Part shown: positions 14,378-36,174 of the stretch, one piece after another
Position numbering within the stretch: position 1 is the first letter of the stretch
Layout of the letters: each line of letters begins with the position of its first letter
Source: an uncultured Myxococcales bacterium
GTDB taxonomy: Bacteria > Desulfobacterota > Binatia > UBA1149 > SPBQ01
Direction: 5' to 3'
Assembly (NCBI GenBank): GCA_964555245.1
Contig: CAZKRI010000032.1
Coordinates: forward strand, 93,239-157,238
Length of the DNA: 64,000 bases
Translations under genes and position numbers: made by a program
The notes under the pieces: generated by a model
Database searches by the model: none
What the model saw: only the letters and a program-made list of their open reading frames with translations
Told to the model about the DNA's origin: nothing

Positions 14378-16768
14378 TCAGCCGCGCAAGACCACGGCGG
14401 TCCACGCGTCGCCGCCCTGCTCGGAGTCCGCCGGACCGAACGCCGCTACGTAGGGCGAGCCATCGAGCGCCGCGCGCACCGCGCGCTTGAGCGCGTCGGT
14501 ACCGTGGCCGTGCAGCACGAAGACGCCGTCGTGACCGGCGAGCATCGCCTCGTCGAGAAAGCGCTCCAGGCGTACCAGCGCCTCCTCCACCCGGGTTCCG
14601 CGCAGATCCAGCGTGTTGGCTGCATGGCGCACGATTCGGTTGATGGCGGTCGATCGCGCCGGCTGCGATGAGGATCGGCTCGGCGGCCTCGCGAGTCTGT
14701 CCGGAGCATCCGGCTCGAGTTTGCGCAGTTGGTTCGGCGCGACCCGCACGCTGAGCGCCGCCGCACGCACCTCGACCTCGCGACCACGGACCGCGACCAC
14801 CTCGCCGGTCAAGTTCAAATGCTCGATGCGCACGCGATCGCCCGGTTGCGGGCTGGGCGCTGCGCGGTCCTCGCTCTCCGTCGGCCCGACCATCACCGAA
14901 TCGCGCGTGTGCCGAACGGCCGACCGCGCGGCGGCGGCGGCGGCCGCCGAGGGGGCGCGCTGCAGGTCGGCGACGATGGCGCCGATCTCGCGCTCTGCCT
15001 GGCGCGCCCTTTCCACCAGCGCCGCTGCGGCCTCCTGCTCGAGTTGCCGGGCCCGCCGCCTGATGTGAGCCTCGCGCTCGGCCACCGCGGCTTCACGGCC
15101 GGCTACCTCTTCCAGCGCTCGCTCGGCCTGCAACCGGGTCTCCCGCGCGCGGGTGCGTTCCGCTTCGAGGCTCGCGAGCGTCTCCTGCAAGGCACGCTCG
15201 CCCTGATCCATTAGCGCGCGTGCGCGCGTGACGACCGCCGGCTCGATCCCGGCGCGCAAGGCCGCGGCCAGCGCATGACTTTCGCCAGCCAAGCCGGGGA
15301 GGATGCGATACGTGGGACGCTCGTCACGGTACTCCATCGCCGCGACGCTCACCCGGCGGTCAGCGGCGGACATCGCCTTGAGCTGCGCGTAGTGCGTGGT
15401 GACGACTACGCGCGCACCGGCCTCGGCGAATCGTTCGACGAGCGCGCGGGCGAGCGCGCCGCCCTGGGCGGGATCTGTGCCCGCGGCAATCTCGTCGAGC
15501 AGCAGGAGGGCTCCCGGCCGAACCTCAGCGAGCATCCCGTGCAAGTTGGCCAGGTGGCCGGAGAAGCTGGAGAGTCCACCGTAGACGCTCTGGCGATCTC
15601 CGATGTCGGCTAGCACAGGCTCGAACAGGTCGACCCGGGAACCCTCAGCCGCGGGCACGAAGCAACCGGCGCGCACCAGTAGCGCGCAGATTCCGATGGT
15701 CTTCAGGGCGACGGTCTTGCCGCCCGCGTTCGGTCCCGTCAGCACCAGCACCGGCTGCTCGGCCGTCAGGCGCAAGTCGTTCGCCACGACCTCGGCACGC
15801 TCGAGCACCAGGACCGGATGTCGCGCCGCGCGCAGATCGACGATGGCCTGATCGGCCACCTCAGGCCGCGCGGCGTGCATCCGCAGCGCAAGCTCGGCCC
15901 GCGCCACGATCAGATCGATGGCGGCGGCTGCGGCCAGCGCCGCGACGAGCGCCGGCGCGTGCCGGCCGACCAGCGCACTGAGGTCGCGCAGAATCCGTAG
16001 CTCCTCCGCACGCAGCTCGGCCTCGGCGACGCGGCGCTGATTGTTGAGCGGCACGACGGCATGGGGCTCCAAGAAGATCGTCTGCCCCGAGCGCGAGGCG
16101 TCGTGCACGATGCCGAGGTCGAGTCCCTTGGCGTGCGCCTTGATCGGCACGACGAAGCGTTCTGCGCGGATCGTCACGTAGCGATCCTGAAGCACCCCAG
16201 CGAACTCCTCGTCCACCAGGAGCGCGTCCATCCGCTCGCGCACCCGTCGGTCCAACGCCTGGATCCGCCGTCGCAGCTCGCCCAAAACAGGATAAGCGCG
16301 CTCGCTCAGCTCGCCCCGCTCGTCGAATGCCGAGGTCAAGGTCGACAGCAGCGCCCGATCGATGTCGATCGCGTCACCCGTGGATGCGAGCGTCGGAGCC
16401 GACTGCCGGCGCACGTCGAGAAAGCCGCGCAACCCGACGAGCGCCGCAACCGTGCTGGCCACGGGGCGTAGCTCACCTGCCTCTAGCAGTTCTCCTCGCT
16501 CGCTGCGCGCGACCAGGCCGGCGATATCCTCGACTCCACCCGTCGGCGGAAACGCCCCCTCCGATGTGAGCAGGCCGAGCGCCTCGCCGACCGCATCGAG
16601 CGTCCGGTGAATCGCCGCCAATTCATCGAAAAGGTCGAGTTCCAATGCCGCCCGCCGCCCCGCCGCGGTGCGCGCGTGCGAGGCAAGCGCACCAAGCACG
16701 TACGGCCAGTCCAGTGCCTCGAGGGTCCGTTGGGACAGGTCCATCGAGGCCACCGCTAAGCCGGCCAC
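14378..16768 (-). CDS. mutS2: Endonuclease MutS2 (MutS ATPase core plus C-terminal Smr domain). Start uncertain: GTG 16768 or ATG 16744.
   Basis: Walker A LTGPNAGGKTVALKTIG. C-terminal Smr region LDLRGTRVEEALVRLERFLDEA…VLHGHGT. Confidence 0.85.
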   Translation of the reverse strand: MAGLAVASMDLSQRTLEALDWPYVLGALASHARTAAGRRAALELDLFDELAAIHRTLDAVGEALGLLTSEGAFPPTGGVEDIAGLVARSERGELLEAGELRPVASTVAALVGLRGFLDVRRQSAPTLASTGDAIDIDRALLSTLTSAFDERGELSERAYPVLGELRRRIQALDRRVRERMDALLVDEEFAGVLQDRYVTIRAERFVVPIKAHAKGLDLGIVHDASRSGQTIFLEPHAVVPLNNQRRVAEAELRAEELRILRDLSALVGRHAPALVAALAAAAAIDLIVARAELALRMHAARPEVADQAIVDLRAARHPVLVLERAEVVANDLRLTAEQPVLVLTGPNAGGKTVALKTIGICALLVRAGCFVPAAEGSRVDLFEPVLADIGDRQSVYGGLSSFSGHLANLHGMLAEVRPGALLLLDEIAAGTDPAQGGALARALVERFAEAGARVVVTTHYAQLKAMSAADRRVSVAAMEYRDERPTYRILPGLAGESHALAAALRAGIEPAVVTRARALMDQGERALQETLASLEAERTRARETRLQAERALEEVAGREAAVAEREAHIRRRARQLEQEAAAALVERARQAEREIGAIVADLQRAPSAAAAAAARSAVRHTRDSVMVGPTESEDRAAPSPQPGDRVRIEHLNLTGEVVAVRGREVEVRAAALSVRVAPNQLRKLEPDAPDRLARPPSRSSSQPARSTAINRIVRHAANTLDLRGTRVEEALVRLERFLDEAMLAGHDGVFVLHGHGTDALKRAVRAALDGSPYVAAFGPADSEQGGDAWTAVVLRG

Positions 16769-16788: not shown

Positions 16789-19700
16789 TCAAGCCGGGAC
16801 GGGCGCGCCCATCTCCTCGCAGAGCCTGCGCGCCATCTCGCGCTCGCGCTCCGCGGCGGCATGATTGCCGGCCGCAGCCTCGAGCGCAGCACGCAGGATG
16901 TGAACGCGCGGGGCGAAGCTGCGGGTCCCCATCTCTTCGATGGATGACCGCGCCCGGCTGAGCAGCGAGTCGACGGCGGCGCGGGCCGCACCGCCGTGCA
17001 TTCGAGTCAAGATTTCCGCCTCCGCCAGCAGGGCCGGCGCGATGAACGTCCTCATCCCGGTCGACCGAACCCTCTCGGATGCCTGGCGAACGAGGTCGAG
17101 TGCCGCGTCCATGTCACCGCGCGCAAGTGCAAGCTGTGCGCGTAAGAACGTCAAGGCGAACTGCTGAAACCCGAACGCGACCTGCGCCAGGCGTTGCACC
17201 GTCGCTTCGAGCTCTTCGACCGGCATGCCGAAGCCGGATATGTCCGGTGTGAGAGCCACACACGCGCATGAGACCGCCACCGCCATGCGTACACCCGTCG
17301 CCTCGCCGAGCCGACGCGCCTCGCGGACGCAAGCGAGCGCACGCTGGCGATCCCCCCACAGGGAACAGACGCAGGCCACCAGGCCGAGCGTGATCGCTAG
17401 GTCGATGCGGTCGTCCGTTGCGCGCGAGTGCTCGAGCGCAAGATCTGCCCCGGCCAGCGACTCGGCATACCTACCGGCGTAGGCGGCGCACGTAGCGCTG
17501 AAGCCCCTGCTCCAACCGGCGGTCTGAAATCCCATGTAGTCACTCGCGCCGTCGATGCCGACCTCGCCTATCTGGTCGAGCGTCGCAATCGCCGCCGCCG
17601 GGTCGCGAAACGTCTGCACGACAAGCCAGAAGCTCAGGGCCGCCGAGATCAAATAGTCGTCGCCTGTCTCGCGCGCAGCCATCAGCGCCCGGTCGAGCAG
17701 CGGGAACGCGCCCACCATGTTGCCATCGACGTATGCGACGTTGCCTTCGGCAATGAGGATTCGTATCTCCGCGTGCGGGTCGTCGCAGCCCTCGAGCGCT
17801 CCGCGCGCCTCGGCCAGCAACGCCGGCGCATCGACGCTCGCGCCGGCGCGAAGCCCACGCATCAGCTCCTGGCAACAGGCGCGGATCCGTTGCGACCTCA
17901 CCTCCGGCGTCGGCTCGATGCTCGCCGTCAGGGTCCGTACCTTGCGCCAGTGCTCGTAGCACTCGGCAACGTTGCTCTGCCCGATCCACAGAGCGGCACG
18001 CTCGTACCACCGCGCTGCCGCCAGCAGCTCGCCGGCTTGCTCGTAGTGATGGGCGAGAAGCGCGGCGCGCTCGTCCCGCACCGCATGCGCCTGCGACTCC
18101 AGCGCGCGCCCGAGAGCGGCGTGCAGCGCTCGCCTACGACCGCCGAGCAGAGATTCGTAGGCAACGTCGCGGGTCAGCGCGTGCTTGAACGCGTACTCGG
18201 CGTCGGGATAGAGCGCCGTCGGATAAACGAACTCGTCGTCGACGAGCTTCGACAGGATCGGCGCGAGATCGCTCGGCGCACGCTCGGTCGCGGTCGCCAG
18301 CAGTGCGAGCGGAAAATCTCGGCCGATCGCGGATGCGGCCTGGAGCACCTGCTTGGCCTCGTCGTCGAGTCGGTCGATGCGCGCGGCAAGGACGCCTTGA
18401 ACGCTCCCGGGCACAGGAATCGCATCGATCGGAGTCTCCAAGCGGAAGGCGCCGCGCGCGCCGACGATGTGCCCTTGTTCGGCAAGCTCGCGCGTTATCT
18501 CCTCGATGAAGAACGGGTTCCCGCCGGTGCGCTCGCGCACGCGGGTGCGCAGCTCGGCGAGAGTCGGGTGGCGACCGAGCAGGAAGTCCATCAACTCGTC
18601 GATCTCGCCCGCGCCGAGCGGCGCGAGCGGTACCTGCTGGTAGTACGACTTCTGGATCCATCTTCCGGAGAACTCGGGCCGGAAGTTCAGCAGCAGAAGC
18701 AATTTTCCGCTCGGCACACTGTCGATCAGGGCGTTGAAAAAGACCGTGCTGCCGGGATCCATCCAGTGGAGGTCTTCGACGAGCACCACGACCGCGTCAC
18801 GCTCGCCGCGTGCCGCGGTGAAGCGCCGCAGGACGTCGAGGATCCGGCGAGTCCGTAGCTCCGGGTCGGTCACCGGGATCGGTCGCTTTGGATCGGGAAC
18901 ACCGAGGAAGTCGAACAGCAACGGCAGCGTGTCGATCAGCTTCTCGTCGATCAGCACCACGCGGCCGGCGATCTTGTCGCGGGCGCGTTCGGGCGAATCG
19001 TCGTCCTTGATGCCGAAGACGTTGCGGTACAGCTCGAGCACCGGGAACAGCGGCAGCGTCCGACCGTGGGGCAGGCAGTAGGTCTCGTAGACCGTCACGC
19101 CCCGCTCGCGGCAGCGCTCGAGAAACTCGAAGCAGAGGCGGCTCTTACCGGTGCCCGCCTCGGCGACCACGCCTACGATGCGACCTTGACCGCCCCTGAC
19201 CTCCTCGAAGGCTTCTTCGAGCGACTCGACCTCCCGCGAGCGGCCGACGAAGCGCGAGAAGCCGCGGCTTCGTGAGACGTCCAAACGCGTGCGCAGCTCC
19301 CCGAGGCCGGTCAGTGCGAACACCTCGACCGGCTCGCGCACGCCCTTGATCGTCGAGCGACCCAGACCCTCGAGCGCGAAGTAGCCGCGCACGAGATCGG
19401 CGGTCGCTCCTGTCAGGTAGGCCTTGCCGGGCTCGGCGATCTGCTGCATGCGCGCGGCCAGCCCCACGCTGTGCCCTTGCGCCGTGTAGTCCATGCGCAA
19501 GTCGTCGCCGATGCGTCCGACGACCACGTCTCCGGAGTTGAGCCCGATGCGTGCGGCGACCGGCAGCCCGCGCTCGATCCGCAGTTCGTTGGCGTACTTG
19601 CGCAGCTCGCTCTGGAGATGGAGCGCGGCGAAGCAGGCGCGCTGCGCGTGGTCTTCGTGCGCGATCGGCGCACCGAACAGCGCCATGACACCGTCACCGG

Positions 19701-20094
19701 TGTACTGGTTGATCGTGCCTTCGAAGCGATGGATGCCCTCGGTCATGATCGCGAAGAAGCGATCCATGACGAGGTGCCACTCCTCGGGGTCGAGCTGCTC
19801 GGACATCGCCATGGACCCTTGAATATCGCTGAACAGAACGGTGACGCGCTTGCGCTCCCCCTCGAGCGCACTGCGCGAGGAGAGAATCTTGTCGGCGAGG
19901 TGCTTGGGCGTGTACGCGCCCGGTGAGCGTTCGACAGGCTTCTCGATCGCCGCCTGTCCGCAGGCGGGGCAGAACTTTGCAGACGCTTTCAGCGAGGCGC
20001 CGCAGGTCGCACAGGCACGGGCGAGCTTTGCCCCGCACTCCTCGCAGAACTTGGCCGCGGCCTCGTTCGGGTGCTTACAGACGGCACATTCCAT
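16789..20094 (-). CDS. Multidomain signalling protein: double zinc-ribbon, class III adenylyl/guanylyl cyclase domain, AAA ATPase, and TPR/regulatory C-terminal region.
   Basis: CAVCKHPNEAAAKFCEECG…CATCG…CPACG. Cyclase region RVTVLFSDIQGS…YTGDGVMALFGAP. P-loop GVVAEAGTGKSRL. Confidence 0.8.
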   Translation of the reverse strand: MECAVCKHPNEAAAKFCEECGAKLARACATCGASLKASAKFCPACGQAAIEKPVERSPGAYTPKHLADKILSSRSALEGERKRVTVLFSDIQGSMAMSEQLDPEEWHLVMDRFFAIMTEGIHRFEGTINQYTGDGVMALFGAPIAHEDHAQRACFAALHLQSELRKYANELRIERGLPVAARIGLNSGDVVVGRIGDDLRMDYTAQGHSVGLAARMQQIAEPGKAYLTGATADLVRGYFALEGLGRSTIKGVREPVEVFALTGLGELRTRLDVSRSRGFSRFVGRSREVESLEEAFEEVRGGQGRIVGVVAEAGTGKSRLCFEFLERCRERGVTVYETYCLPHGRTLPLFPVLELYRNVFGIKDDDSPERARDKIAGRVVLIDEKLIDTLPLLFDFLGVPDPKRPIPVTDPELRTRRILDVLRRFTAARGERDAVVVLVEDLHWMDPGSTVFFNALIDSVPSGKLLLLLNFRPEFSGRWIQKSYYQQVPLAPLGAGEIDELMDFLLGRHPTLAELRTRVRERTGGNPFFIEEITRELAEQGHIVGARGAFRLETPIDAIPVPGSVQGVLAARIDRLDDEAKQVLQAASAIGRDFPLALLATATERAPSDLAPILSKLVDDEFVYPTALYPDAEYAFKHALTRDVAYESLLGGRRRALHAALGRALESQAHAVRDERAALLAHHYEQAGELLAAARWYERAALWIGQSNVAECYEHWRKVRTLTASIEPTPEVRSQRIRACCQELMRGLRAGASVDAPALLAEARGALEGCDDPHAEIRILIAEGNVAYVDGNMVGAFPLLDRALMAARETGDDYLISAALSFWLVVQTFRDPAAAIATLDQIGEVGIDGASDYMGFQTAGWSRGFSATCAAYAGRYAESLAGADLALEHSRATDDRIDLAITLGLVACVCSLWGDRQRALACVREARRLGEATGVRMAVAVSCACVALTPDISGFGMPVEELEATVQRLAQVAFGFQQFALTFLRAQLALARGDMDAALDLVRQASERVRSTGMRTFIAPALLAEAEILTRMHGGAARAAVDSLLSRARSSIEEMGTRSFAPRVHILRAALEAAAGNHAAAEREREMARRLCEEMGAPVPA

Positions 20095-21292: not shown

Positions 21293-22978
21293 GTGTCGAG
21301 ACGGAGAACAGTGGCGATCACGCTCGTGGCCTGTATCGCGGCAGCGGGTTGCGCGCCAAGGCTCCCTGCTGACCCAGATCGGACGGCTTCTGCGCGGCGC
21401 GTGATTCCGAAGGGTGCAACCGCTCCTCTTTTCAACGACCTGGGGAACCACCACTACTCCGTCACCACGAATTCCGAGCTCGCCCAACGCTACTTCGACC
21501 AGGGCTTACGGCTCTGTTACGCCTTCAACCACCAGGAAGCCGTGCGCTCGTTCCGCGAGGCGGAGCGGTTGGATCCCAACTGTGCGATGTGTTTCTGGGG
21601 CGAGGCGTTCGCCCTGGGCGCCAACATCAACAAGCCCATGGACGACGCCGATGTGCCGGTGGCGTGGGCTGCCGTCCAGAACGCCCGTCGCACCGCCGCC
21701 AGCGCAACTTCCAAGGAGCACGCCCTGATCGATGCGCTGGCCGTGCGCTACAGCGAGCAGCCGGTCAAGGACCGCGCTCCGCTGGACCTCGCTTATGCGG
21801 ATGCCATGCGCACGGTCGCGCGGGCCTATCCAAACGACCTCGACGTGCAGACGCTGTTCGCCGAGGCGCTCATGGATACGATGCCGTGGAACTACTACGA
21901 GAAGGACGGCAGCCCCAAACCGGCCACGCTCGAGGTCGTCGCCGCGCTCGAAGGCGTAATGGAGCGCGAGCCGCTCCATCCGGGCGCGTTGCACTTCTAC
22001 ATTCACGCCGTCGAGGCATCCGCCACGCCCGGGCGCGCCGAGACGCCTGCCGACCGTCTGCTCGGCCTGATGCCGGGCGCCGGTCACCTGGTGCACATGC
22101 CCTCTCACATCTACATTCGGGTCGGACGCTACCACGACGCCAGCGTCGTCAACGAGCTGGCGGCCAAGGCCGATGAGTCCTACCTCACGCAGTGCAACGC
22201 GCAGGGCTTCTATCCGGCGATGTACTATCCCCACAACGTGCACTTCCTGTGGGCCGCCGCCAGCTTCGAAGGCCGCAGCCAGGTCGCTCTGAATGCCGCA
22301 CGCAAGCTGGTCGCATTCATCCCGCCCGAGCGCGTCGGCGAGTTTCCGTTCCTCGAAGAGCTGCTGCCGGTCGTCGCGTTGACGCAGGCTCGCTTCGGGC
22401 AATGGAAGGAGATCCTCGCGGCCCCTGCGCCCGCGGCCGAGTTCCGGTACGCGACCGGCATGTGGCACTACGCGCGTGGCCTCGCTCTGGTACGCAACGG
22501 CCGGATCAAGGACAGCGAGGACGAGTTGCGTCAGGTTGTCGCACTCGCCGAGAGCGAAGCGATGCGTTCACTCATGCTGCTGTCGGTGCAGACCAGCGCC
22601 CAACAGCTGCTGAGAATCGCCGCGAAAGTCCTCGAGGGCGAGATCGCTGCTGCGCGCGGCCGCTGGAGCCAGGCCATTGCAGCGCTCGAGCGAGCGGTGA
22701 CCCTCGAAGCCGACCTCACCTACTCCGAGCCGCCGCCCTGGTACTTCCCGGTGAGAGATGCGCTGGGACAAACCCTGCTCCGCGCTGGACGTGCCCGCGA
22801 CGCCGAAGCCGTCTACCGCAAACAACTCGCGTCCACCCCCGGTAACGGCTGGAGCCTGTACGGACTCGCGGCCAGTCTGCGCGAACAGGGCAATGTGGCT
22901 ACCGCCGCAGCGGTCCAGGCAGACTTCGAGGCCGCCTGGGCCCTGGCCGACGTCCCGCTTACGGGCTCGGTGTTCTAG
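21293..22978 (+). CDS. TPR-repeat lipoprotein. GTG start at 21293 with AAGGAGG RBS and lipobox (LVACIAAAGC).
   Basis: AAGGAGG 6 nt upstream of the GTG. Signal/lipobox TVAITLVACIAAAGCAPR. TPR-like helical repeats throughout. Confidence 0.6.
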   Translation: MSRRRTVAITLVACIAAAGCAPRLPADPDRTASARRVIPKGATAPLFNDLGNHHYSVTTNSELAQRYFDQGLRLCYAFNHQEAVRSFREAERLDPNCAMCFWGEAFALGANINKPMDDADVPVAWAAVQNARRTAASATSKEHALIDALAVRYSEQPVKDRAPLDLAYADAMRTVARAYPNDLDVQTLFAEALMDTMPWNYYEKDGSPKPATLEVVAALEGVMEREPLHPGALHFYIHAVEASATPGRAETPADRLLGLMPGAGHLVHMPSHIYIRVGRYHDASVVNELAAKADESYLTQCNAQGFYPAMYYPHNVHFLWAAASFEGRSQVALNAARKLVAFIPPERVGEFPFLEELLPVVALTQARFGQWKEILAAPAPAAEFRYATGMWHYARGLALVRNGRIKDSEDELRQVVALAESEAMRSLMLLSVQTSAQQLLRIAAKVLEGEIAAARGRWSQAIAALERAVTLEADLTYSEPPPWYFPVRDALGQTLLRAGRARDAEAVYRKQLASTPGNGWSLYGLAASLREQGNVATAAAVQADFEAAWALADVPLTGSVF

Positions 22979-22981
22979 GGA

Positions 22982-23443
22982 GTGTCCGACGTGCGCGAGA
23001 CCGAACCGCCGTCCGCCCGGCTACGAGAGCTGATCTTCAAAGCCAACGAAGAGACCTTTCGCGCCTGGAACGCGCACGACGCCGCGGCCGTGGCTGCAGT
23101 GTTCGCACCAGAGGCCGTGGTGGTCGACGTGCTGACCGGCGAAACCATCACCGGACGCGAGGCGATCCGGACGCGTACGGCTTCGCTGTTCGAGGCTTTT
23201 CCCGACCTGTCGCTGACCCGCGTCATGCTGCTCATCGATACCGCGACCAACGCCGATCAATGGGTCATGCGAGGCACGCACCGCGGCCCGTTCCTCGGGA
23301 TTCCACCCAGCGGCCGTAGATTCGAGGTGCGCGGCGCAACCTTCAGCGAGTTCGATCAGGCCGGCCTGGTGGTGCGCGACACCAACTACGTCGACGTCGC
23401 GGCTTTGCTCGCGCAGATCAGCCCCGCGCGGGCTGAAGGCTGA
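22982..23443 (+). CDS. SnoaL-like / NTF2-fold protein (ester cyclase-like), GTG start.
   Basis: Family-typical pattern …WNAHDAAAVAAVFAPEAVVVD…, about 150 aa. Confidence 0.6.
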   Translation: MSDVRETEPPSARLRELIFKANEETFRAWNAHDAAAVAAVFAPEAVVVDVLTGETITGREAIRTRTASLFEAFPDLSLTRVMLLIDTATNADQWVMRGTHRGPFLGIPPSGRRFEVRGATFSEFDQAGLVVRDTNYVDVAALLAQISPARAEG

Positions 23444-23479
23444 GGCCGGACGCTTGCGGGTCCGGCCTCAGCATCGTGG

Positions 23480-25084
23480 TCACGGCCCTTTCGCCTTGTA
23501 CTGCGTTGGGCTCTGCAGCGTGAAGGTGGAGAACGTCGTCTTGAAGCACTCAGTCGTGAAGCCGTCGTCGATCAGCAACTGCACGACGACGCTGGGCGCC
23601 AGCGCGGCGGTCGAAGGAGGCCCGAGCAGAGCGCCCTTCCCCTTCACCTGCACCTGGGACTTGCCGGCCGCGCCGGCCTTGAGCTTACCGCCAGTGATGC
23701 CGTCGGGCGTGGCGGCTTTGTTTTTGTACTTGAACCCGGTGGTGCCCGATGGCTTCCAGCACGGCTGAGTCCCGCACAGCGGCATCACGCCGCCGTTGGG
23801 GATGTCCGCTTCCAGCAGCGGCTGCGGATTGATCGAGGCGTCGTAGACACACAGGCGGTACGTCGAGCCCGCTACGGTCGGCGTCTGGAAGTCGCCGATC
23901 ACGGTTGCCACCCCTTTGTTCCACTTCCACTTGAAGGAGTCCTTGGTGTTGTCGGCGTCGTTCTTGATCTGGAGCGAGGACTTACCGAGCCCGGTCACGT
24001 CCGCGAGGTTGCACGAGCCGTCGGGCTCGGGAAGCGGACCGCAGAGCGGCACGAGCGTGGTGCTCGTGGTCGACGTGGTGGTCGTCGACGTCGTGATCGT
24101 CGTCGTGGTCGACGTGGTGGTGGTCGTTGAGGTGGGAGTCGCAAACGCTGGCGTCAGCTCCAAGGCGTCGACGTTGTCGCCGCCGGGATGGAACGGATGC
24201 GGGCCGCAGGCTCGCGCCGGCCAGAGGTTCACAATGTCCTCGGGGATGAGGATGCAGAGCGGGCCGGCAAGGCCGAACAGCGCCGGATCCGCCAGGACGT
24301 CGCCTTCTTCGATTGGCATTCCGAGGCAGGAATCGAAGAGTCCGATGCTTGCCGAGCCGGGCGCCAGCGAGAAGAGGACGTAGTCCCCGCCGCCCCCGGG
24401 AATCGGGCCATATGCACAGTCCATTGGCGGGTCCGAGACGACGAGACCGTCGATGTCGTCGGTGCCCGGGCCGAAGAAGTCGAGCCCGAGCACGGGCGCC
24501 GGCGCGTAGAGACAGGCGGGGAAGCCGCCTATCGTGCCGATCACGTCAGCGCCGGATAGACCAACACCGGCTCCGGTCGCAGCATCGACCGAGAAGTACA
24601 CGAGAATGTCAGGTGTACCGTCGACCGGGCCCGAATCAATCGCGCCGACCGGGAGAAAGTCGACTGCGTCGATATCGTCACCTCCCGGCATCGGCTCTAT
24701 GAGACCAAGGGGAGCACTGAAGAAAGGCGGCCCCCCCGGTGCGTTCCCATCTGCGATCTGGCGGTGCGGCATCGGCGGGAACCCGAACGGCAGAGGTCCG
24801 GCAAAGTTGCCACCGGTGTAGTAGACGTCGGCAGGAGCATCGGAGCTAAGAGGCAAGAGAGCCGATTCGGTACCCACGTTCGGCGGGAACGGCACTGCAC
24901 CCGGTACGCACCCTGGCACGGTCGTACCCGTCGCCGGCAGGTCAACGCTGAACAGGATGCTCACGGCACCCGGCGGAATGGGAAACGGAAGACCCGGTGG
25001 GGCGACGAGACCCGTGGAGAAGCCGTCGAGGTTCGCCGGCACCGGCGGGCCGAACCAGCCTAGTCCGCAGCCCGGAGGCGCCAT
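23480..25084 (-). CDS. Pro/Gly-rich N-terminal region, Thr/Ser-rich linker (TPTSTTTTTSTTTTITTSTTTTSTTSTT), and a C-terminal Cys-containing domain of roughly 190 aa of unknown function (KSSLQIKNDADNTKDSFKWKWNKG…YRLCVYDAS…). Start uncertain: candidates 25084, 24772, 24688. No obvious signal peptide.
   Basis: Long coherent frame. C-terminal domain is homologous to the small ORF at 35725..36024. Overlaps the plus-strand ORF at 24957..25084. Confidence 0.5.
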   Translation of the reverse strand: MAPPGCGLGWFGPPVPANLDGFSTGLVAPPGLPFPIPPGAVSILFSVDLPATGTTVPGCVPGAVPFPPNVGTESALLPLSSDAPADVYYTGGNFAGPLPFGFPPMPHRQIADGNAPGGPPFFSAPLGLIEPMPGGDDIDAVDFLPVGAIDSGPVDGTPDILVYFSVDAATGAGVGLSGADVIGTIGGFPACLYAPAPVLGLDFFGPGTDDIDGLVVSDPPMDCAYGPIPGGGGDYVLFSLAPGSASIGLFDSCLGMPIEEGDVLADPALFGLAGPLCILIPEDIVNLWPARACGPHPFHPGGDNVDALELTPAFATPTSTTTTTSTTTTITTSTTTTSTTSTTLVPLCGPLPEPDGSCNLADVTGLGKSSLQIKNDADNTKDSFKWKWNKGVATVIGDFQTPTVAGSTYRLCVYDASINPQPLLEADIPNGGVMPLCGTQPCWKPSGTTGFKYKNKAATPDGITGGKLKAGAAGKSQVQVKGKGALLGPPSTAALAPSVVVQLLIDDGFTTECFKTTFSTFTLQSPTQYKAKGP

Positions 25085-26516
25085 CGGAATCGTCGTGAGG
25101 GCGAGCGGATCCCAAACATCGCCGTCCGGTGAAAAGTTCGCGCCGAGGCACGGAGGTCCGAGCGGTGGAGGAGGCGGCAGAGTTACCGAGCCGGGCGCCC
25201 CTGAGATCGTCTGGGCAACGATCGACGATCTCTACGTCCACCGTCCGGACGGTACCCTGGTGCTCGGTTTTCGGGTCGCTGCGCCCCCCCAGCATGAGTT
25301 CCGGACGGTTCCGACCCTGGCCGACCTCGACGGAGACGGGAGCCTCGACATCGTGGTCGGGGCACGTGGCGATACCGCGAGCGATCCCGGTCAAGTCCTC
25401 GCCTTCCGTTACTCCAGCGGCAACCCGACTCTGCTGCCGGGCTGGCCTCGAGAGGTGGACGACAACTCTCTCTACGCATCCGCGTCGGTGGGAGATCTCG
25501 ACGGTGGTGGACCGGATGTCGTCGTGGAGAGCTACGACCGAATCTATGCCTGGCACGCCGACGGCACACCGGTCGCCGGCCTGCACGGCGCGCCGCTGGC
25601 GGCTCCCATCGATCAGGCCGAGACCGCGGGGTCGGGGTCGGTCCGGTCTTCGTCGCAACCGGCGCTCGCAGACCTGAACGGCGACGGGACGCTCGAGATC
25701 ATCGTCGGCTCCAACGTCCTGCGTGCCGACGGAACCGCTCTGCCCGGATGGGAGGGCGCGAAGCCTGGCGCTAGGAATAGCCTGTCGGCGGCCGTGGGAG
25801 ATCTCGACGGCGTGGCCGGCAACGGTTTCGAAGTCGTGCTTGGAACGGATGCCTGGCATGCCGACGGGACCACTGTCACGGGTCGCCCGTTTCCCTCTCC
25901 CCTCGCCTCCGCAGTGCTCGGCGACTGCGGCGATGGGGATCTCGACACGATCGTCGGCTCGCGCGATCCGTTCGAACCAGGCGTTGCCGCGTTTCGTCCG
26001 GACGGAACCATGCTGGAGGGATATCCGAAGAGTCTCTACGGAAATACGGGAGATGCGGGTGCACCGGTGATCGGCGACTTCGACGCCGACGGGCTCGTCG
26101 ACGTCGCCACCGCCATCACGGACGCCGGCTATGGCGGTGTGGTCGCGGTGTGGGACATGCCCGGCACCAACCACGACGAGCGTCACGCCTGGCCCATGCT
26201 CGGGCATGACGTCCGGCACACCGGCCTCTACACCCTCCCCCCGCCCAACCGGCCCGCGAACCTCGCGGCAACCCTAGAGGACGGGGCTTTGCGGTTGACG
26301 TGGGAAGACCGGAGCGCCGTCGAGGATGCCTATGTCGTCGAGCGTTCGGCCACGGGCGCACCGTGGACTTACTCCGCGATCGCCCAGCTCCCGGCCAACA
26401 CGACGGCGTACGTAACTCCTGTCGTCGGGGGAACCTATCGCGTCCGCGCCACACGACAGGATCCACAAAGCGGAACGAGCCTCTCGTCCGTGGCCTCGGA
26501 CCCGGTCCAGCCGTAG
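24957..26516 (+). CDS. FG-GAP / integrin-alpha-type beta-propeller repeat protein with a C-terminal fibronectin-III-like segment. True start is probably downstream of 24957.
   Basis: Repeats LADLDGDGSLDIVVG, VGDLDGGGPDVVV, LADLNGDGTLEIIVG, VGDLDGVAGNGFEVVLG, GDFDADGLVDVA. The N-terminal 40-70 aa are G/P-rich low-complexity and overlap the minus ORF. Confidence 0.55.
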   Translation: MLTAPGGMGNGRPGGATRPVEKPSRFAGTGGPNQPSPQPGGAIGIVVRASGSQTSPSGEKFAPRHGGPSGGGGGRVTEPGAPEIVWATIDDLYVHRPDGTLVLGFRVAAPPQHEFRTVPTLADLDGDGSLDIVVGARGDTASDPGQVLAFRYSSGNPTLLPGWPREVDDNSLYASASVGDLDGGGPDVVVESYDRIYAWHADGTPVAGLHGAPLAAPIDQAETAGSGSVRSSSQPALADLNGDGTLEIIVGSNVLRADGTALPGWEGAKPGARNSLSAAVGDLDGVAGNGFEVVLGTDAWHADGTTVTGRPFPSPLASAVLGDCGDGDLDTIVGSRDPFEPGVAAFRPDGTMLEGYPKSLYGNTGDAGAPVIGDFDADGLVDVATAITDAGYGGVVAVWDMPGTNHDERHAWPMLGHDVRHTGLYTLPPPNRPANLAATLEDGALRLTWEDRSAVEDAYVVERSATGAPWTYSAIAQLPANTTAYVTPVVGGTYRVRATRQDPQSGTSLSSVASDPVQP

Positions 26517-26553
26517 CGCTGGGCAGTGACGTCAGCCAGCGCGAAGCGAGAGC

Positions 26554-27867
26554 CTATCCCGCATCCCCCGCTGCCCGGATCCGCCGCAGCAGCACCTTTG
26601 CATCCCGCTGTTCCGGCTCGAGCGCGAGGCTTTGCTGCCAGTGCTCGCGGGCTTCGACCAGCCGGCCTTCCTGGCGCAACAGGTTGCCGAGGTAGCGGTG
26701 CACGTCGGCCATCGCTTGGTTCTGGTCGAGCGCCCGCCGGTAGGCCGCCTCGGCACGTGCGCGGTCGCCGAGCCTCTCGTAGAGGACTCCGAGGTTCTTG
26801 TGGGGGCGCGCGTAGTCAGGACTGATCGCGATGGCACGCTGGTACGCTCGCTCGGCCTCATCGAGTTTGCCGGCATGATGCAGAGCCACTCCGAGATCGT
26901 TTTGCACCTTCTCGTCTTGCGGCTCGAGCGCAGCAGCACGGGTAAACGCCTCGATCGCCTTTTCACGATCGCGAGCACGCAGGGCGGCCCGCCCCATCCG
27001 GCGCCAGATCTCGGCATCCTCCGGCCTGAGCGTGGCAGCCTCGGCATAGGCGATGAGCGCGCGATCGTACTGCTTGTTGTCCACGAACTTGTCCCCGGCG
27101 CGACGGTGCAGGTAGACGGGGTTCGAGAGCGTAAGCAGACCGATCGCCACTGCCGCGACCGCGGCCAGGCCACCGGCGGCGCCGAGCACACGCCAGACCG
27201 ACAGACGCGACAGCGGCAACGCCTGACGTACGCGGGCGATCGCAAAGCAAGCAAAGGCTGCCAGGATGCAGGTCCCGCCCACCATCTCGCAGGCCTCTTC
27301 GAGCGCGACCTCGATCCGGTACAGCCCCGCGGGAATGAAGTAGGGTTTGGCCGCGCCCTCCAGGATGAAGCTCGCCGTCCATAGTCCCAGCCCGGCCAGC
27401 CCGAGCCCCTTTGCGCCCGGCAGCGGCCCCAAACGCGTCTGCAGGAGGGAGACGATGACGACAAAGGCTGCGACGATGCCCGGCGCAAAGATGAGCTGCC
27501 AGGGCAGCACACCTTGAAGGAGCGAGTCGGCCGGAAAGAACGCCCGCACCGCGTGGGTCAGCACGCGCTCGTGCAAGGCGAGCGCTTCATCGGCCGAGAG
27601 ATAGAAGAAGCCCAAGCCGACCACCGGCCAGATCCACGTGGACCACTGCGGGCTCCCCACGTCGCGCCGCTCGGCCTCGAATGCGAATAGGCAGGTGCCG
27701 CCGATGCCTGCAAGCTGAAGCGCCGAGAACCAGGCCGGCAGCGTGTGCTCCTTGTCGAGATCGACCAGAGCGATGTCGGGCAGCAACAGGTGCGCGGCCA
27801 CGAGCAACGCCTCAACGGCGCCTATCGCGACTGCGTAGGGAAGAAGAATTCGCCACGCGCTACGCAT
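26554..27867 (-). CDS. Integral membrane protein with N-terminal multi-TM region and C-terminal TPR repeats.
   Basis: Several hydrophobic helices (aa 1-250), then TPR-like repeats (AIEAFTRAAALEP…AERAYQRAIAISP…AEAAYRRALD). Confidence 0.65.
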   Translation of the reverse strand: MRSAWRILLPYAVAIGAVEALLVAAHLLLPDIALVDLDKEHTLPAWFSALQLAGIGGTCLFAFEAERRDVGSPQWSTWIWPVVGLGFFYLSADEALALHERVLTHAVRAFFPADSLLQGVLPWQLIFAPGIVAAFVVIVSLLQTRLGPLPGAKGLGLAGLGLWTASFILEGAAKPYFIPAGLYRIEVALEEACEMVGGTCILAAFACFAIARVRQALPLSRLSVWRVLGAAGGLAAVAAVAIGLLTLSNPVYLHRRAGDKFVDNKQYDRALIAYAEAATLRPEDAEIWRRMGRAALRARDREKAIEAFTRAAALEPQDEKVQNDLGVALHHAGKLDEAERAYQRAIAISPDYARPHKNLGVLYERLGDRARAEAAYRRALDQNQAMADVHRYLGNLLRQEGRLVEAREHWQQSLALEPEQRDAKVLLRRIRAAGDAG

Positions 27868-27905
27868 GGCGCAACAGGCCGATGCTGAGCGAGGCTAGAC
27901 CGCCC

Positions 27906-28691
27906 TCAGTCGCCGCCGCCGGGGCCGGAGGTGTCGTCCTCGTCCTCCGAAACGCTGGGCGAGACTTCTTCGTCGTCGCCGTCAGACTCGCTGGGCGAGG
28001 GCTGCTCATCGTCGCTCACGCTCGGTGAAACGTCGTCCTCGCTCACCGAGGCGGATGCCGACGCGCTAGGGTCAGCGGAGGGCTCCCCATCGGCGGGGCT
28101 GGCGGAGGGTGAGACCGACGCGCTGGGCTCGTCCTCTTGCGTGCCGTCGCCGTCACCGCCGTCGACCGGGCTGACCGAAGCCGATGCCGACGGAGAGACG
28201 CTCGGATCATCCTCCGGGTCCCCGTCGAAGGGGCTCACCGACGGGGAGGCGCTCACGCTCGGCTCTTCGGTGCCGGTATCGGGCACATCGCCTTCCAGAA
28301 TTGGGCCGCCCTCGGTATCCGCTACCACGAGGGTGCAGGCGCCCGGGTCGAAGTCCAGGGGTTCGTCGCGGCTGCTGCGCCGATCGCCGGCACGCAATCG
28401 TACCTTGCCTCCGCCACCTCCATTGGTGGCGATGTCGGCCACGTGAGCACCGCCGCAGAGCACCTTGAACCCAGAGTCCGCGGCCAAGCCCGCCACCCGG
28501 ATCTTCAAGCTCGCGCCCGAGTGGCCGCCGCGATTCTTGAATGCTGCGCTCCCGGTCGCACTGGACCCGGCGGTCGAAGCGGAAAGCGCGGTCTTTGATT
28601 TGCTGCCGCCTGAGACTGCCACGCCCGTCAGGAGCAGCACCATCGAAGCGACGGATGAAAGACAAGCGATGCGCCGGAAAACAGTGGTCAT
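27906..28691 (-). CDS. Secreted protein with extremely acidic Ser/Pro/Asp/Glu-rich low-complexity C-terminal half.
   Basis: Signal-like N-terminus (IACLSSVASMVLLLTGVAVSGG). GGAGG RBS. Repetitive SVSPSASASVSP… tail. Confidence 0.5.
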   Translation of the reverse strand: MTTVFRRIACLSSVASMVLLLTGVAVSGGSKSKTALSASTAGSSATGSAAFKNRGGHSGASLKIRVAGLAADSGFKVLCGGAHVADIATNGGGGGKVRLRAGDRRSSRDEPLDFDPGACTLVVADTEGGPILEGDVPDTGTEEPSVSASPSVSPFDGDPEDDPSVSPSASASVSPVDGGDGDGTQEDEPSASVSPSASPADGEPSADPSASASASVSEDDVSPSVSDDEQPSPSESDGDDEEVSPSVSEDEDDTSGPGGGD

Positions 28692-28824
28692 GGTGGAACC
28701 TCCTGGAAGAATGATGTTCTGCCCTTAATACAGTGCACCCGCTCGCGCAAGTCGTTGATGAGTCGCAGCAGCGAGCGTCGCCCCGCCGGCTTAGGACTAG
28801 CGTCCTACTTCGATCGAGTGGGAA

Positions 28825-29586
28825 TCAGATGCTCATCATCCCCCGGCGTGGGACGTTGGTTCCGTAGGTTTCGCTCGCGATCGGGGCGCCCATCTCGGCC
28901 AAGACCGTGCGCTGTTGCGCGAGCGGAGTGCGCATCGAGCGATCCTCGAACGGCCTGAGCCGCGCGAATTCATCGAGCGCCAGAACACGGTCGACGTATC
29001 CCGCAGTTCGGGGCCAGCGAGCCGATTCGATCGAGAAGCCTGCGAATGCGGCGTTGCGGAAGAACGTCGCGATCGAGATGTCGGCAATCGAAGGCGCGCC
29101 GAACAAGAATCCGTCCGGCGGCGCGATGCTCTCGAGGTAGTCGAGCACACTTGGGATTTCTTCCCGCCGCGCGCGCTCGACGACGGCCTCGTCGGTCGGC
29201 TCCCCCCAGACGAACGGCCGGATGACGAGCTGATTGAAGAAACGCCAGATCAGCACCTCTCCCATGCGCGTGTCGGCGAACTCCTCCAACCAGCGGGCCT
29301 TCGCCCGGTCCACCACGTCGATCGGATAGAGCGCGGGCTCTGGATAACGGTCCTCGAGGTACTGACAGATGACCGAGGAGTCGGCGAGCGTGACCCGGTC
29401 GTCCACGAGTACGGGAACCCGGCGCACCGGGCTCAGCTTGGCGAATCGGTCATCGCCCAGAAACGGAACGATCGGATCGATGCGGTACGGTATGCCCTTG
29501 AAGTGCAGGACGACCAAGACTTTGCGGACGTAGGGGGAGACGTACGATCCAATGATCGTGACCGGGGGTCGCGCGACCTCAGGCAT
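28825..29586 (-). CDS. Glutathione S-transferase family protein.
   Basis: Thioredoxin-like N-domain (VSPYVRKVLVVLHFKGIPY…RRVPVLVDD) and helical C-domain. Confidence 0.75.
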   Translation of the reverse strand: MPEVARPPVTIIGSYVSPYVRKVLVVLHFKGIPYRIDPIVPFLGDDRFAKLSPVRRVPVLVDDRVTLADSSVICQYLEDRYPEPALYPIDVVDRAKARWLEEFADTRMGEVLIWRFFNQLVIRPFVWGEPTDEAVVERARREEIPSVLDYLESIAPPDGFLFGAPSIADISIATFFRNAAFAGFSIESARWPRTAGYVDRVLALDEFARLRPFEDRSMRTPLAQQRTVLAEMGAPIASETYGTNVPRRGMMSI

Positions 29587-29591
29587 ACGGG

Positions 29592-30039
29592 TCAGACATA
29601 GGAAGGATCGAATTCGCCGCCGTTCTTGCCGACCCAGGCGACCGTCTCATCGCCGATCCCGTCCTCGTAGGTGTCCGAGAGGTAGACGATTCGATCGTCT
29701 TGGTAGCGAGCCTCGGAACGGCCGCGAATGGTCACCGGTGCCATCCCTTTGCCCTCGTAGGTTCCCTTCCAGGGCACGGCGACGCCGTCGGGTTGCATCT
29801 CGGGAGCGCCGGTAACCTCAACCCGCCGGACGGCGAACTTGCGATCGAAGCCGTCGAGCGACTTGCGGATCCCGCGCAGAACCGCGGCGCGGCCTTCCAG
29901 CCGGCAGGCGAAGGGAACGTTCTTGACCTCGTAGACGGCGTCCTCGGTAAAGTATCGTTCCAGGCGCGACCAATCGTCGTCGAGATAGGTCTTCTCGAAG
30001 TCGGCCGCGTAGGCGACGAAACGGTCGAGAAAATTCATC
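29592..30039 (-). CDS. SnoaL-like / NTF2-fold protein. Start at MNFLDRF (ATG 30039) with GGAGG RBS; the long upstream extension is rejected.
   Basis: GGAGG 7 nt upstream of the ATG. Family-like length (148 aa). The upstream extension is Ala/Arg-rich. Confidence 0.6.
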
Positions 30040-30177
30040 ACGGTACCTCCGTGCGTTGCCGCGGCGGCCAGTATCCCGGCGGCGGTGCCTGTGACAAGCG
30101 CGCCCCACGGCAGCCTTGACAAGCACCGGTTGCGCGGGTGTATCGTCCAACGGCCGCCGGCAGTCCCGGCGGCGAAC

Positions 30178-32253
30178 ATGCCCCGCACCCGAATAGCAAC
30201 CAAGGGGCTTTCCCTGACCGTATCGCTGCTGGCCGTAGCCGCGGTCGCGCACGCGCAGCCCTGCACGACGGTCGATGAAGCGCGCGCGGTGCTCAAGGCG
30301 GCCAAGTCCGAGGTCCGGTGCAACGACCGCCGGCTGGCATCAGACCCAGCCCACGTGTGCACGATCGAGGCGGCTCCCGCGTGCTCGGCAGCTCTCGTCG
30401 ACGATACCGTCGCGCTGGCCTACGGAGCGAACAATCCGCCCCTCGCCGCCGTCGATCGCTCGACGCTTCGCGACCAGCTTCGCTGCCAGCGTGCGATCGG
30501 CAAGGGAAGCGCATCCTTCATCGGGCTCAAGCTCAAGTTCCTCGTTCAGGGATCGAGCGCAGCTGAAGCGGAGCTTCGAGCACGCAAGCGTCTGGACCGC
30601 CTGCCCGACCGATGCGCCGTCGGCGTGGCCCAGAGCAACGGTGTTCTGCTGCCGGCGGTTGGCCCCCAGCTCGCAGCTGCGGTCGGCGGTGCCGGCTCAA
30701 CCGTGGACGCGGTCGCACTGCCCGCTGCGTTCGTGACGCTGCTGGAGACCTGGGTCGACCGGATCGGGCCCAACCCGCAGCCACTCAAGCCCAACATCGT
30801 GCTGATCATCACCGACGATCAGCGCGGGGATACGATCGCACCGCAGTTCATGCCCAAGCTCACCGCCGAGCTGGTCGACTCGGGTGTGCTGTTCCCCAAC
30901 GGCTTCTCCTCCAATCCGGTGTGCTGCCCGAGCCGGGCGAGCATCTTGAGTGGCCAGTACGCCCACAACCACGGGGTGCTGCAGAACCGCGAGGGCGATC
31001 CGTTGAATCCCACTGGTGGGATCCAGGCGTTCAACGACGTCTCGACCTTGTCCACTTGGCTGCGCGACCAGGCTGGCTACCGGACCGGGCTGTTCGGCAA
31101 GTACCTCAACGGCTACCGCCAGTTCAGCAACGATTACGCCGCAAGCCACGGAGGGTTGCAGTACGTTCCGCCTGGATGGGACCGCTGGTACGCCGTTCAC
31201 GGTGGCGGAGGTCAGTACGGGATCACGTTCGCCGATGAGACCGGGGCGATCGTCGACACCGACCCGGGGAGCTGCGTCGATCTTCCTCTCGGCCAGGAGT
31301 GCGCGGCCACCCAGGCCCCCGATTGTCCGCACTCGACCGACCACCTGCGGGACAAAGCGATCTCGTTCATCGACGAGGCGCTCGGGCTCGGGAAGAGGTT
31401 CTTCCTCTATCTGTCGACGCAGTCGCCGCACGGGCCGGCCTGTCCGGCCATGCGGCACCTTGGAATGTTCGCGGGGCTTCCACCCCACCGGCCGCCCAAC
31501 TACAACGAGGGTGAGCCGGGGCAGGATCCCGACAACGACAAGCCCGCCTGGCTCCGGCAGCAAGGCCCCATCGACGCCGCCGCGATCGACCAGTTCCGGA
31601 TCAATCAGCTCGAGTCGTTGCAGAGCGTCGACGAGGCCATCGAGGCGATCATGCAGAAGCTGCGCGACACCGGGCACGACCGGGACACGATCGTGATCGT
31701 GTACGGCGACAACGGCTACCTCTGGGGCGAGCATCGTCGCGAGAAGAAGTCCTGCCCGTACGAAGAGTGCCTCCGGGTTCCCTTCCTGGTCCGCTACCCG
31801 CCGCTGGCTCCGCTGCCGCGCAGCGACGACGGCCCGGTGATGAACATCGACCTCGCCCCCACCCTCGCGGCACTAGCTGGTCTTGCTCCCGCCGGGCTGC
31901 TGCCGCCAATCGACGGGCTGAGCATGGTCGACCAACTCGACGGCACCGAGGCCGCCTGGCGCACCGACATTCTGGGCGAGCACTGGGGTAGCGAGCCTCA
32001 GCCTGGCGATCTTTCCCCACCGATCCCGACCTTCGCCTTGGTCCGTGGCCCGCAGTGGAAGTACACGGAATACTGCACCGGGGAGACCGAGCTCTACGAT
32101 CTCACGCAGGATCCCAACGAGCTGACCAACATCGCCGGCGCCAACCCCGGCGTGGTCGCCACGATGGCCGCACGGTTGCGCGAACTGAACGACGAATGGC
32201 CGGCAACGATCCCGTTTACCTGCGGCATCTTCGACGACGACGAGAACGAGTAA
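30178..32253 (+). CDS. Cys-type sulfatase (arylsulfatase family) with signal peptide and an extra N-terminal Cys-containing domain of roughly 200 aa.
   Basis: CCPSRASILSGQYAHNHG is the sulfatase C-x-P-x-R formylglycine motif. Start at MPRTRIATKGLSLTVSLLAVAAVAHA. Confidence 0.85.
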   Translation: MPRTRIATKGLSLTVSLLAVAAVAHAQPCTTVDEARAVLKAAKSEVRCNDRRLASDPAHVCTIEAAPACSAALVDDTVALAYGANNPPLAAVDRSTLRDQLRCQRAIGKGSASFIGLKLKFLVQGSSAAEAELRARKRLDRLPDRCAVGVAQSNGVLLPAVGPQLAAAVGGAGSTVDAVALPAAFVTLLETWVDRIGPNPQPLKPNIVLIITDDQRGDTIAPQFMPKLTAELVDSGVLFPNGFSSNPVCCPSRASILSGQYAHNHGVLQNREGDPLNPTGGIQAFNDVSTLSTWLRDQAGYRTGLFGKYLNGYRQFSNDYAASHGGLQYVPPGWDRWYAVHGGGGQYGITFADETGAIVDTDPGSCVDLPLGQECAATQAPDCPHSTDHLRDKAISFIDEALGLGKRFFLYLSTQSPHGPACPAMRHLGMFAGLPPHRPPNYNEGEPGQDPDNDKPAWLRQQGPIDAAAIDQFRINQLESLQSVDEAIEAIMQKLRDTGHDRDTIVIVYGDNGYLWGEHRREKKSCPYEECLRVPFLVRYPPLAPLPRSDDGPVMNIDLAPTLAALAGLAPAGLLPPIDGLSMVDQLDGTEAAWRTDILGEHWGSEPQPGDLSPPIPTFALVRGPQWKYTEYCTGETELYDLTQDPNELTNIAGANPGVVATMAARLRELNDEWPATIPFTCGIFDDDENE

Positions 32254-32265
32254 CCAGGAAACACG

Positions 32266-32299
32266 ACCCGATGGGGAACGGCACACGCCCCCCATCGGG
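32266..32299 (+). terminator. Intrinsic-terminator-like hairpin just 3' of the sulfatase stop codon.
   Basis: CCCGATGGGG-aacggcacacgc-CCCCATCGGG (10-bp stem), followed by UAAAUCU. Confidence 0.4.
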
Positions 32300-32458
32300 G
32301 TAAATCTCCGACGCAGCGGCGTACGTCTCTTGACCTAGGCACCGGAGTAGGACGAAAGTCCAGGGGTTTTTACGGACCTTTGTCGGGGGCAGCGGCCGGC
32401 GCACATCGATGTTCCCCGGAAGCTGCCTGTCGGCGTTCATCAGAGGGAGGGTACCGGC

Positions 32459-35724: not shown

Positions 35725-36024
35725 ATGGCTCAATCGTACGGTCGACGCGTCACGGGTATCGCGCTCGGTCTGCTCGCCGGCTTCGCACTTCAGCGGCCGG
35801 CTACCGCAGCGACGATCTGCCCCGCCAAGCCGTTCTCAGGATGCGTAACGAGCGAGAAGGCGTCGTTCCAGATCCGCGGCGACTCGGATGACGCCCGTGA
35901 CCAGCTCAAGTGGAGCTGGTCGAAGGGAGCGGCGGTCGGCCAGGCCGAACTTGGAGATCCCTCGGTGACCACGGCTTACGCCCTGTGCATCTATGATTCG
36001 ACGGGCAGCGCACCCTGCCCGTAA
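35725..36024 (+). CDS. Small secreted Cys-containing protein (99 aa). A truncated paralog of the C-terminal domain of the 23480..25084 protein; possible gene remnant.
   Basis: Signal-like GIALGLLAGFALQRPATAA. KASFQIRGDSDDARDQLKWSWSKGAAVGQAELGDPSVTTAYALCIYDS aligns with KSSLQIKNDADNTKDSFKWKWNKGVATVIGDFQTPTVAGSTYRLCVYDAS. Confidence 0.45.
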   Translation: MAQSYGRRVTGIALGLLAGFALQRPATAATICPAKPFSGCVTSEKASFQIRGDSDDARDQLKWSWSKGAAVGQAELGDPSVTTAYALCIYDSTGSAPCP

Positions 36025-36174
36025 ATGGGGTCAGGTCAGATTTTCGACGAATCTCATGCGCACCGTGCCAGAGAGAGTTTCTCCTGGTCCGATCACTCGT
36101 AGACCGGTCAGCTCGCGCGACTCGAAACCGTTTGCATGACGCAGCGTCAGGATCGGCACCGCCACTAGTCGCGT

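Follow-up and report, generated by a model that had tools for sequence, protein, structure and literature searches.

The locus analysed here raises the question of what a short cysteine-containing segment is doing in two separate genes, and whether either gene still works. The locus lies in a 64,000-nucleotide stretch (the window; G+C 66%) of contig CAZKRI010000032.1 from an uncultured bacterium placed in the Binatia. On the minus strand the window encodes a 534-aa protein (the long open reading frame, or long ORF, 23480..25084) and on the plus strand a 99-aa protein (the short ORF, 35725..36024), and both contain the segment. The segment belongs to a real, abundant domain that neither the curated libraries nor the literature searched contain. 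The reading favoured here, at a probability of roughly 0.55, is a C-terminal module of a new type for surface anchoring or sorting in Binatia-like uncultured bacteria, of which the window holds two decayed copies.

The shared domain and its family

The preliminary description of this DNA, made by reading the sequence, proposed that the ends of the two proteins are related, and the relationship is real. In the BLASTP alignment (E 5e-13), which has a single gap, residues 368-417 of the long protein pair with residues 45-93 of its short counterpart; 40% of the positions are identical and 64% positive. A hidden Markov model (HMM) of the family, built from 164 family domains and about 175 positions long, matches the long copy at E 3.7e-70 over profile positions 2-175 and the short ORF at E 1.6e-16 over positions 4-64 of 175. 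The cysteine pair that had been noticed at the start of the segment is present in both proteins, as C-x9-C in the long and C-x7-C in the short one, and corresponds to the first two conserved cysteines of the family. With either sequence as the query, tblastn finds only these two copies in the 64-kb window (E 6e-10 and 4e-11), the next match standing at E >= 0.1. Since the short ORF is only 40% identical to the long copy and 28-46% identical to other members, the two are, judged by this divergence, old paralogues and not the products of a recent duplication.

Beyond the window, a word-indexed search for which the C-terminal 191 residues of the long protein served as query matched 28 proteins, all annotated as "hypothetical" and none with a Pfam domain over the region. 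An exhaustive HMMER search of 1.84 billion cluster representatives, run with a profile of 16 sequences, returned 7,347 proteins at E <= 1e-3, of which 1,820 reached E <= 1e-30. The named genomes that carry the domain are two Candidatus Binatia, one "Deltaproteobacteria", one member of the Gemmatimonadota and one Terriglobales metagenome-assembled genome. A genome scan with a narrower alignment retrieved five genome loci and six metagenome loci. Together these matches make up a very large, so far undescribed domain family of uncultured Gram-negative bacteria. To our knowledge, the phylum of the Binatia-like bacteria has no cultured representative.

One of the loci, from a Candidatus Binatia (L005, on a 4.77-Mb contig), carries two domain genes in tandem at 1943..3751 and 3885..5504 (E 8.8e-38 and 4e-40), which, being adjacent, represent tandem paralogues within one genome. 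One of the pair is built like the long protein of the window, with a signal peptide, "FSLAPGSPTL...GDxIDAL" repeats, a linker and the domain. At another locus, that of P0011, the gene runs off the end of a contig, the assembly being fragmented.

On the evidence of the predicted model, the domain is best explained as a disulfide-stabilised, basic beta-sandwich of about 175 residues. AlphaFold2, given the 16-sequence alignment, predicts an all-beta fold of about 12 strands with a predicted local distance difference test score (pLDDT) of 92.3 and a predicted template modelling score (pTM) of 0.89. Six cysteines are near-invariant (residues 348, 358, 412, 437, 442 and 513 of the long copy), and W, G, P, Y-D and Q positions are also conserved. 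Disulfides likely join the first cysteine to the second and the fourth to the fifth, because the spacing of the first two is 7 residues in 110 members and 9 residues in 35, and the fourth and fifth are lost jointly in 4 sequences; by elimination, a long-range bond would then join the third to the sixth. The six cysteines point to folding in an oxidising compartment and, with the signal peptides of many members, to an extracytoplasmic domain. The family alignment contains no conserved His, Ser or Glu of the catalytic-site kind, which suggests a structural rather than a catalytic domain, and an enzyme or toxin reading was rejected on the same ground.

The domain is also set apart by its charge. 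Its median isoelectric point (pI) is 9.05, with 84% of copies above pI 8 and a mean net charge of +5.6, whereas the parts of the proteins upstream of it have a median pI of 4.15 and none of 115 lies above pI 8. With this positive charge, the domain may bind an anionic polymer of the envelope or matrix.

The preliminary description could assign the domain to no family, and this stands against the curated libraries. When both window proteins were scanned, no Pfam-A or NCBIfam model matched over the domain at E <= 1. The domain profile found nothing at E <= 10 among PDB sequences, and a Foldseek search of the PDB with the predicted model found nothing below E 0.05; thus neither by sequence nor by fold is there a significant similarity to a solved structure or curated family in Pfam-A, NCBIfam or the PDB. 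The profile search that had been suggested is, in turn, highly significant. The domain itself has no match to the Myxococcus-type cysteine-rich acidic repeat (TIGR02232 / DUF4215), repeats of this kind matching only upstream of it in some members (e.g., at residues 698-729 of P0029, where the domain occupies 835-1005). Searches of the literature on Binatia/Binatota and on sorting domains found nothing that bears on it.

Terminal position, passengers and probable role

The domain is obligately C-terminal. In 161 of the 173 members retrieved, no residue follows it. FKAKGP is the terminal hexapeptide of 37 members and most of the rest have a close variant of it; two copies occur in only three of these proteins. 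Members range in length from 157 to 1,699 aa, and many of the full-length ones begin with a signal peptide. Domain-only secreted proteins also exist, including P0139 and P0018, the latter consisting of a signal peptide, a Thr linker and the domain. A rare exception to the terminal position is the metagenomic protein P0001 (L009 2..1393), in which no stop codon follows ...KGP and the protein runs on into a Ser/Thr-rich tail of 43 aa.

Upstream of the domain lie secreted, acidic passengers of extreme diversity. Among 79 full-length members, a Pfam census distinguished 44 partner families, most of them seen a single time, including subtilase (S8), trypsin, M36, M43, phytase, lysyl oxidase, GH114, legume lectin, CBM96, and lactonase and sortilin-type propellers. 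In the corresponding NCBIfam census (79 members, 35 families matched, the 25 most frequent listed), passengers matched choice-of-anchor B (E 3.8e-141), choice-of-anchor Q, a myxosortase-dependent phytase, T9SS-dependent and rhombosortase-dependent M36 peptidases, and the MYXO-CTERM protein MtsC, through MtsC-like thrombospondin-3 (TSP3) repeats. The names of such families refer to the C-terminal sorting signals that their members bear, which differ from lineage to lineage. Before the domain stand cysteine-rich repeats in 30 members and a thrombospondin-3-like Asp-rich segment in 11, and a linker rich in Thr, Ser and Pro precedes it in at least 21 of 130.

The same exchange of C-terminal ends can be followed on the passenger of the long protein, the homologues of which have at least four: PEP-CTERM, dockerin, a hydrophobic anchor and the new domain. 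PEP-CTERM is found on P0189 (TIGR02595, 22.3 bits against a cutoff of 16; PF07589, 27.5 against 20.7), type I dockerin on P0179 (30.7 against a cutoff of 22.9) and also on P0180, and a hydrophobic C-terminal anchor on P0186. The closest homologue, P0177, is the only one with the poly-Thr linker and the domain. The passenger family (homologues P0178-P0193) is itself unannotated, having no Pfam or NCBIfam model.

The strictly terminal position, the near-constant single copy, the flexible linkers, the unlimited diversity of passengers and the replacement of known anchors together argue for an anchoring or sorting module. By analogy with known systems, the most likely role is that of a non-covalent surface anchor or address domain. 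A Sec signal peptide would export the protein, in which a Thr-rich linker or cysteine-rich repeats connect the domain with a variable acidic passenger, be it an enzyme, a lectin, a propeller or an adhesin-like repeat. Ending exactly at the C terminus (...F-K-A-K-G-P), the domain would then serve as the address or anchor, either holding proteins non-covalently on the anionic cell envelope or matrix or presenting them to a surface-attachment machinery. Such a role would parallel that of PEP-CTERM, MYXO-CTERM, dockerins or the C-terminal domains (CTDs) of the type IX secretion system (T9SS) on the same passenger families elsewhere.

The T9SS CTD (TIGR04183 / Por_Secre_tail) offers the closest parallel to the chief rival explanation, under which the domain is a cleavable secretion tag for a dedicated outer-membrane translocation and attachment system, comparable to the CTD with PorU/PorV, and is later removed or covalently processed. 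Both are beta-sandwiches at the extreme C terminus of Sec-exported proteins with very diverse passengers, and an M36 peptidase occurs with either tag. The exact terminal end on exported cargo, the conserved hexapeptide and the rarity of second copies are what such a tag would show, and so is the occurrence of the domain in place of T9SS-, rhombosortase- or myxosortase-dependent tags on passengers of the same families. However, with 175 aa and three disulfides the domain is about twice the size of a T9SS CTD, no NCBIfam or Pfam sorting model matches it, and the domain-only secreted proteins have no cargo to deliver. The T9SS models (TIGR04183/TIGR04131, Por_Secre_tail) give no match at E <= 1 in either window protein and do not occur among the 25 most frequent NCBIfam families of the census. 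Neither partner machinery nor a conserved neighbour was found at the five genome and six metagenome loci, which are too few for a test. A cleavable tag is the main rival and still rather improbable.

The other known C-terminal systems resemble the domain in position or in use and differ from it in structure. PEP-CTERM, MYXO-CTERM and rhombosortase signals occupy the same position on the same passenger families (P0189, and the choice-of-anchor and myxosortase-dependent families). These signals consist of a motif of about 25-35 aa, a transmembrane helix and a basic tail, whereas the domain is folded and soluble; its C terminus, ...TFTLQSPTQYKAKGP, has no hydrophobic helix, and neither TIGR02595 nor PF07589 matches. 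Type I dockerin is likewise a non-catalytic C-terminal module, attaches varied secreted proteins to a surface scaffold and takes the place of the domain on P0179 and P0180. It is, however, a Ca-binding duplicated F-hand of about 60 aa without a cysteine framework, in contrast to an all-beta domain with six cysteines for which no cohesin-like partner is known, and the dockerin model (PF00404) has no match in either window protein. The beta-barrel of autotransporters (type V secretion system, T5SS), a C-terminal 12-stranded structure of about 250-300 aa (PF03797) that is usually Cys-free and ends in an aromatic residue, was rejected for the domain on size, cysteine content and fold.

Two further alternatives take the domain to be an accessory module of secreted enzymes, as the bacterial pre-peptidase C-terminal (PPC) domain and the beta-sandwiches of carbohydrate-binding modules (CBMs) are. 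In the first, it would be a lectin-like or CBM-like module that targets an external anionic substrate (plant, algal or microbial polysaccharide, humic matter or minerals) rather than the cell's own envelope. A CBM may stand at either end of a protein, in its interior or in tandem with others, but more than 90% of members of this family have one copy of the domain, at the terminus. Many of its passengers degrade no polymer (propellers, lectins, choice-of-anchor families and adhesin-like repeats), and elsewhere the same passengers carry cell-anchoring signals, not CBMs. This reading, which comes next after the cleavable tag, is unlikely. In the second, the domain would be a C-terminal propeptide or intramolecular chaperone that aids folding or secretion and is then removed, comparable to the PPC domain. 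Its presence at the C terminus of secreted proteases, among others, would suit this role, but most passengers are not proteases and no Pfam PPC match is found. The strong conservation, the three disulfides, the length of 175 aa and the existence of domain-only proteins also argue for a function of its own, which makes a propeptide highly improbable. The absence of any Pfam match, the strictly terminal and single-copy occurrence and the many non-enzymatic passengers separate the domain from PPC and CBM-type modules alike.

Several points weigh against an anchoring or sorting module. The role is drawn by analogy from position and from substitution for known anchors, and no genomic association ties the domain to an envelope component or machinery. 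The domain-only proteins P0018 and P0139 are more easily reconciled with a binding or structural module than with a tag that serves sorting alone, and the two copies seen in three members are unusual for a sorting signal. With its basic pI the domain could bind anionic polymers in general, and these need not be the cell's own.

If an anchoring or sorting module is nevertheless what these proteins carry, it may be the cargo tag of an undiscovered, dedicated sorting or surface-attachment system of Binatia-like bacteria, one that recognises the free ...KAKGP terminus and parallels the T9SS and exosortase systems while being evolutionarily unrelated to them. This extension is offered only tentatively; should the partner machinery exist, it would constitute a new protein-sorting pathway. 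Thousands of secreted proteins (proteases, phytases, lectins and adhesin-like proteins) of widespread uncultured bacteria end in this one unannotated domain. Naming it would improve genome annotation and flag surface and secreted proteomes, and the domain is a clean target for structure determination and binding assays.

State of the two copies in the window

The features of the two window genes are as follows.

23483..24055, minus strand: complete C-terminal domain copy (long-ORF residues 344-534), the stop codon 23480..23482 directly following ...YKAKGP
24056..24142, minus strand: Thr/Ser-rich linker ATPTSTTTTTSTTTTITTSTTTTSTTSTT, encoded by an imperfect repeat with a period of 9 nt
24143..25231, minus strand: acidic passenger module with repeated "..FSVD/FSLAPGS.. 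DDIDAL" units, by homology to P0178
25232..25234, minus strand: in-frame TAG, the putative 5' truncation breakpoint, where homologues have the hydrophobic core of a signal peptide
35725..35811, plus strand: start codon and signal-peptide-like N terminus MAQSYGRRVTGIALGLLAGFALQRPATAA, as read from the sequence, with a ribosome-binding-like site GGAGGAGG 8 nt upstream
35815..36003, plus strand: truncated domain copy with C32, C40, a WxW strand and an LCIYD strand (C88), from the HMM and BLASTP
36004..36174, plus strand: tail STGSAPCP, stop codon 36022..36024, then a 150-nt spacer to a convergent LanC-like gene

Both copies look damaged, the long one lacking a signal peptide and the short one two thirds of the domain. 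The long gene was probably cut at a rearrangement junction marked by the TAG at 25232..25234, and the short ORF retains a signal peptide and only the first third of the domain. We infer that both copies have lost their function, and decay of this kind is a caution against taking either as a working example of the family.

The long ORF begins MAPPGCGL... without a signal peptide, and the ATG at 25084 is the only start available. Its homologue P0178, which has a signal peptide, is 41% identical to the long protein (E 5e-47). This alignment continues in frame for 48 codons upstream of the ATG, starting 1 codon after the TAG, within a homologous reading frame that extends 49 codons beyond the ATG, and there the window reads SSIVAQTISGAP... 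opposite ...ARVSAQSFSNAP... of P0178. Upstream of the TAG, translations of the minus-strand frames contain no signal-peptide-like sequence in any frame. This DNA is instead the antisense of a plus-strand FG-GAP repeat gene (25095..26516; PF13517, E 1.7e-18) that stands head-to-head with the long gene and likewise has no signal peptide. The Logan gene caller starts the FG-GAP gene at a GTG at 25095, inside the antisense of the coding sequence of the long gene.

This arrangement is best explained by loss of the start and signal peptide of the long gene at the head-to-head junction near 25232, and the product of the gene is probably no longer exported. Since neither the FG-GAP gene nor the long gene has a signal peptide, a single rearrangement or deletion probably took away the 5' ends of the two genes together with their shared promoter region. 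The junction is identical in Logan contig SRR9952632_203365, the sequence of which is that of window 21906..34691 over the part compared. Two points temper the case for decay of the long gene. Its frame is still open for 583 codons with a normal G+C content at third codon positions (GC3) of 0.81, so that either the truncation is recent or the product is still made from the ATG at 25084. The Logan contig, moreover, is assembled from SRR9952632 reads and may not be an independent sample of the junction.

The long protein is absent from a collection of 5.8 billion proteins, in which it has neither a self-match nor an exact match, and the Logan assembly calls an identical 534-aa product. The idea that the gene is an annotated pseudogene, which came from this absence, was dropped in view of the Logan call.

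The simple repeat that had been reported in the linker, with the suggestion that it could slip, is genuine: Tandem Repeats Finder places it at 24056..24135, with a period of 9 nt and 8.9 copies. It is imperfect (69% matches), and slippage is limited, since a period that is a multiple of three allows only in-frame changes in linker length. In P0177, a homologue 69% identical to the long protein, the linker is 3 residues longer.

The short ORF had been described as either a truncated copy or a minimal version of the domain, and the former is the better description: we read it as the remnant of a 3'-truncated gene, one that may still be transcribed. As had been observed, it ends early, its stop falling 8 codons past the YD, while the long protein runs 117 residues further. 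It covers only the first third of the domain, and a six-frame HMM scan with --max and tblastn found no remnant of profile positions 65-175 downstream of it in any frame.

The contrary explanation makes the 99-aa ORF a working mini-protein in its own right, such as a decoy or regulator that is secreted and descends from the N-terminal part of the domain. An intact ATG, the GGAGGAGG site, the signal-peptide-like N terminus, a GC3 of 0.75 and the occurrence of the identical sequence in two Logan assemblies would fit such a protein. That GC3 is nonetheless below the 0.80-0.86 of neighbouring genes. A search of the 5.8 billion proteins with the 99-aa query returned only itself, and without a second short protein there is no conserved "minimal" family. 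The ORF holds the first three conserved cysteines and lacks the other three of the six, including the proposed partner of C88. Nor is the fragment predicted to fold: with the matched 16-sequence alignment, AlphaFold2 gives the mature product a pLDDT of 54.1 and a pTM of 0.30, against a pLDDT of 84-97 for the same segment inside the whole domain. A functional mini-protein is thus very unlikely, and a truncated gene remnant remains the preferred reading of the short ORF.

Both Logan contigs with the short ORF end at window position 36403, inside the LanC-like gene (36175..37371), which may mark strain variation or a repeat boundary. By eye, the 150-nt spacer after the short ORF looks richer in A and T than its surroundings.

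Elsewhere in the window, a zinc-ribbon/adenylate-cyclase/AAA_16/TPR protein (16789..20094, minus strand) and MutS2-Smr (14378..16768, minus strand) represent an ordinary chromosomal context, with nothing that links them to the domain. Directly upstream of the short ORF, at 32459..35620 on the plus strand, a 1,053-aa protein with no Pfam-A match at E <= 1e-3 has a signal peptide, many myxo-type cysteine-rich repeats (CxDGNxCTxDxC) and a C-terminal repeat region.
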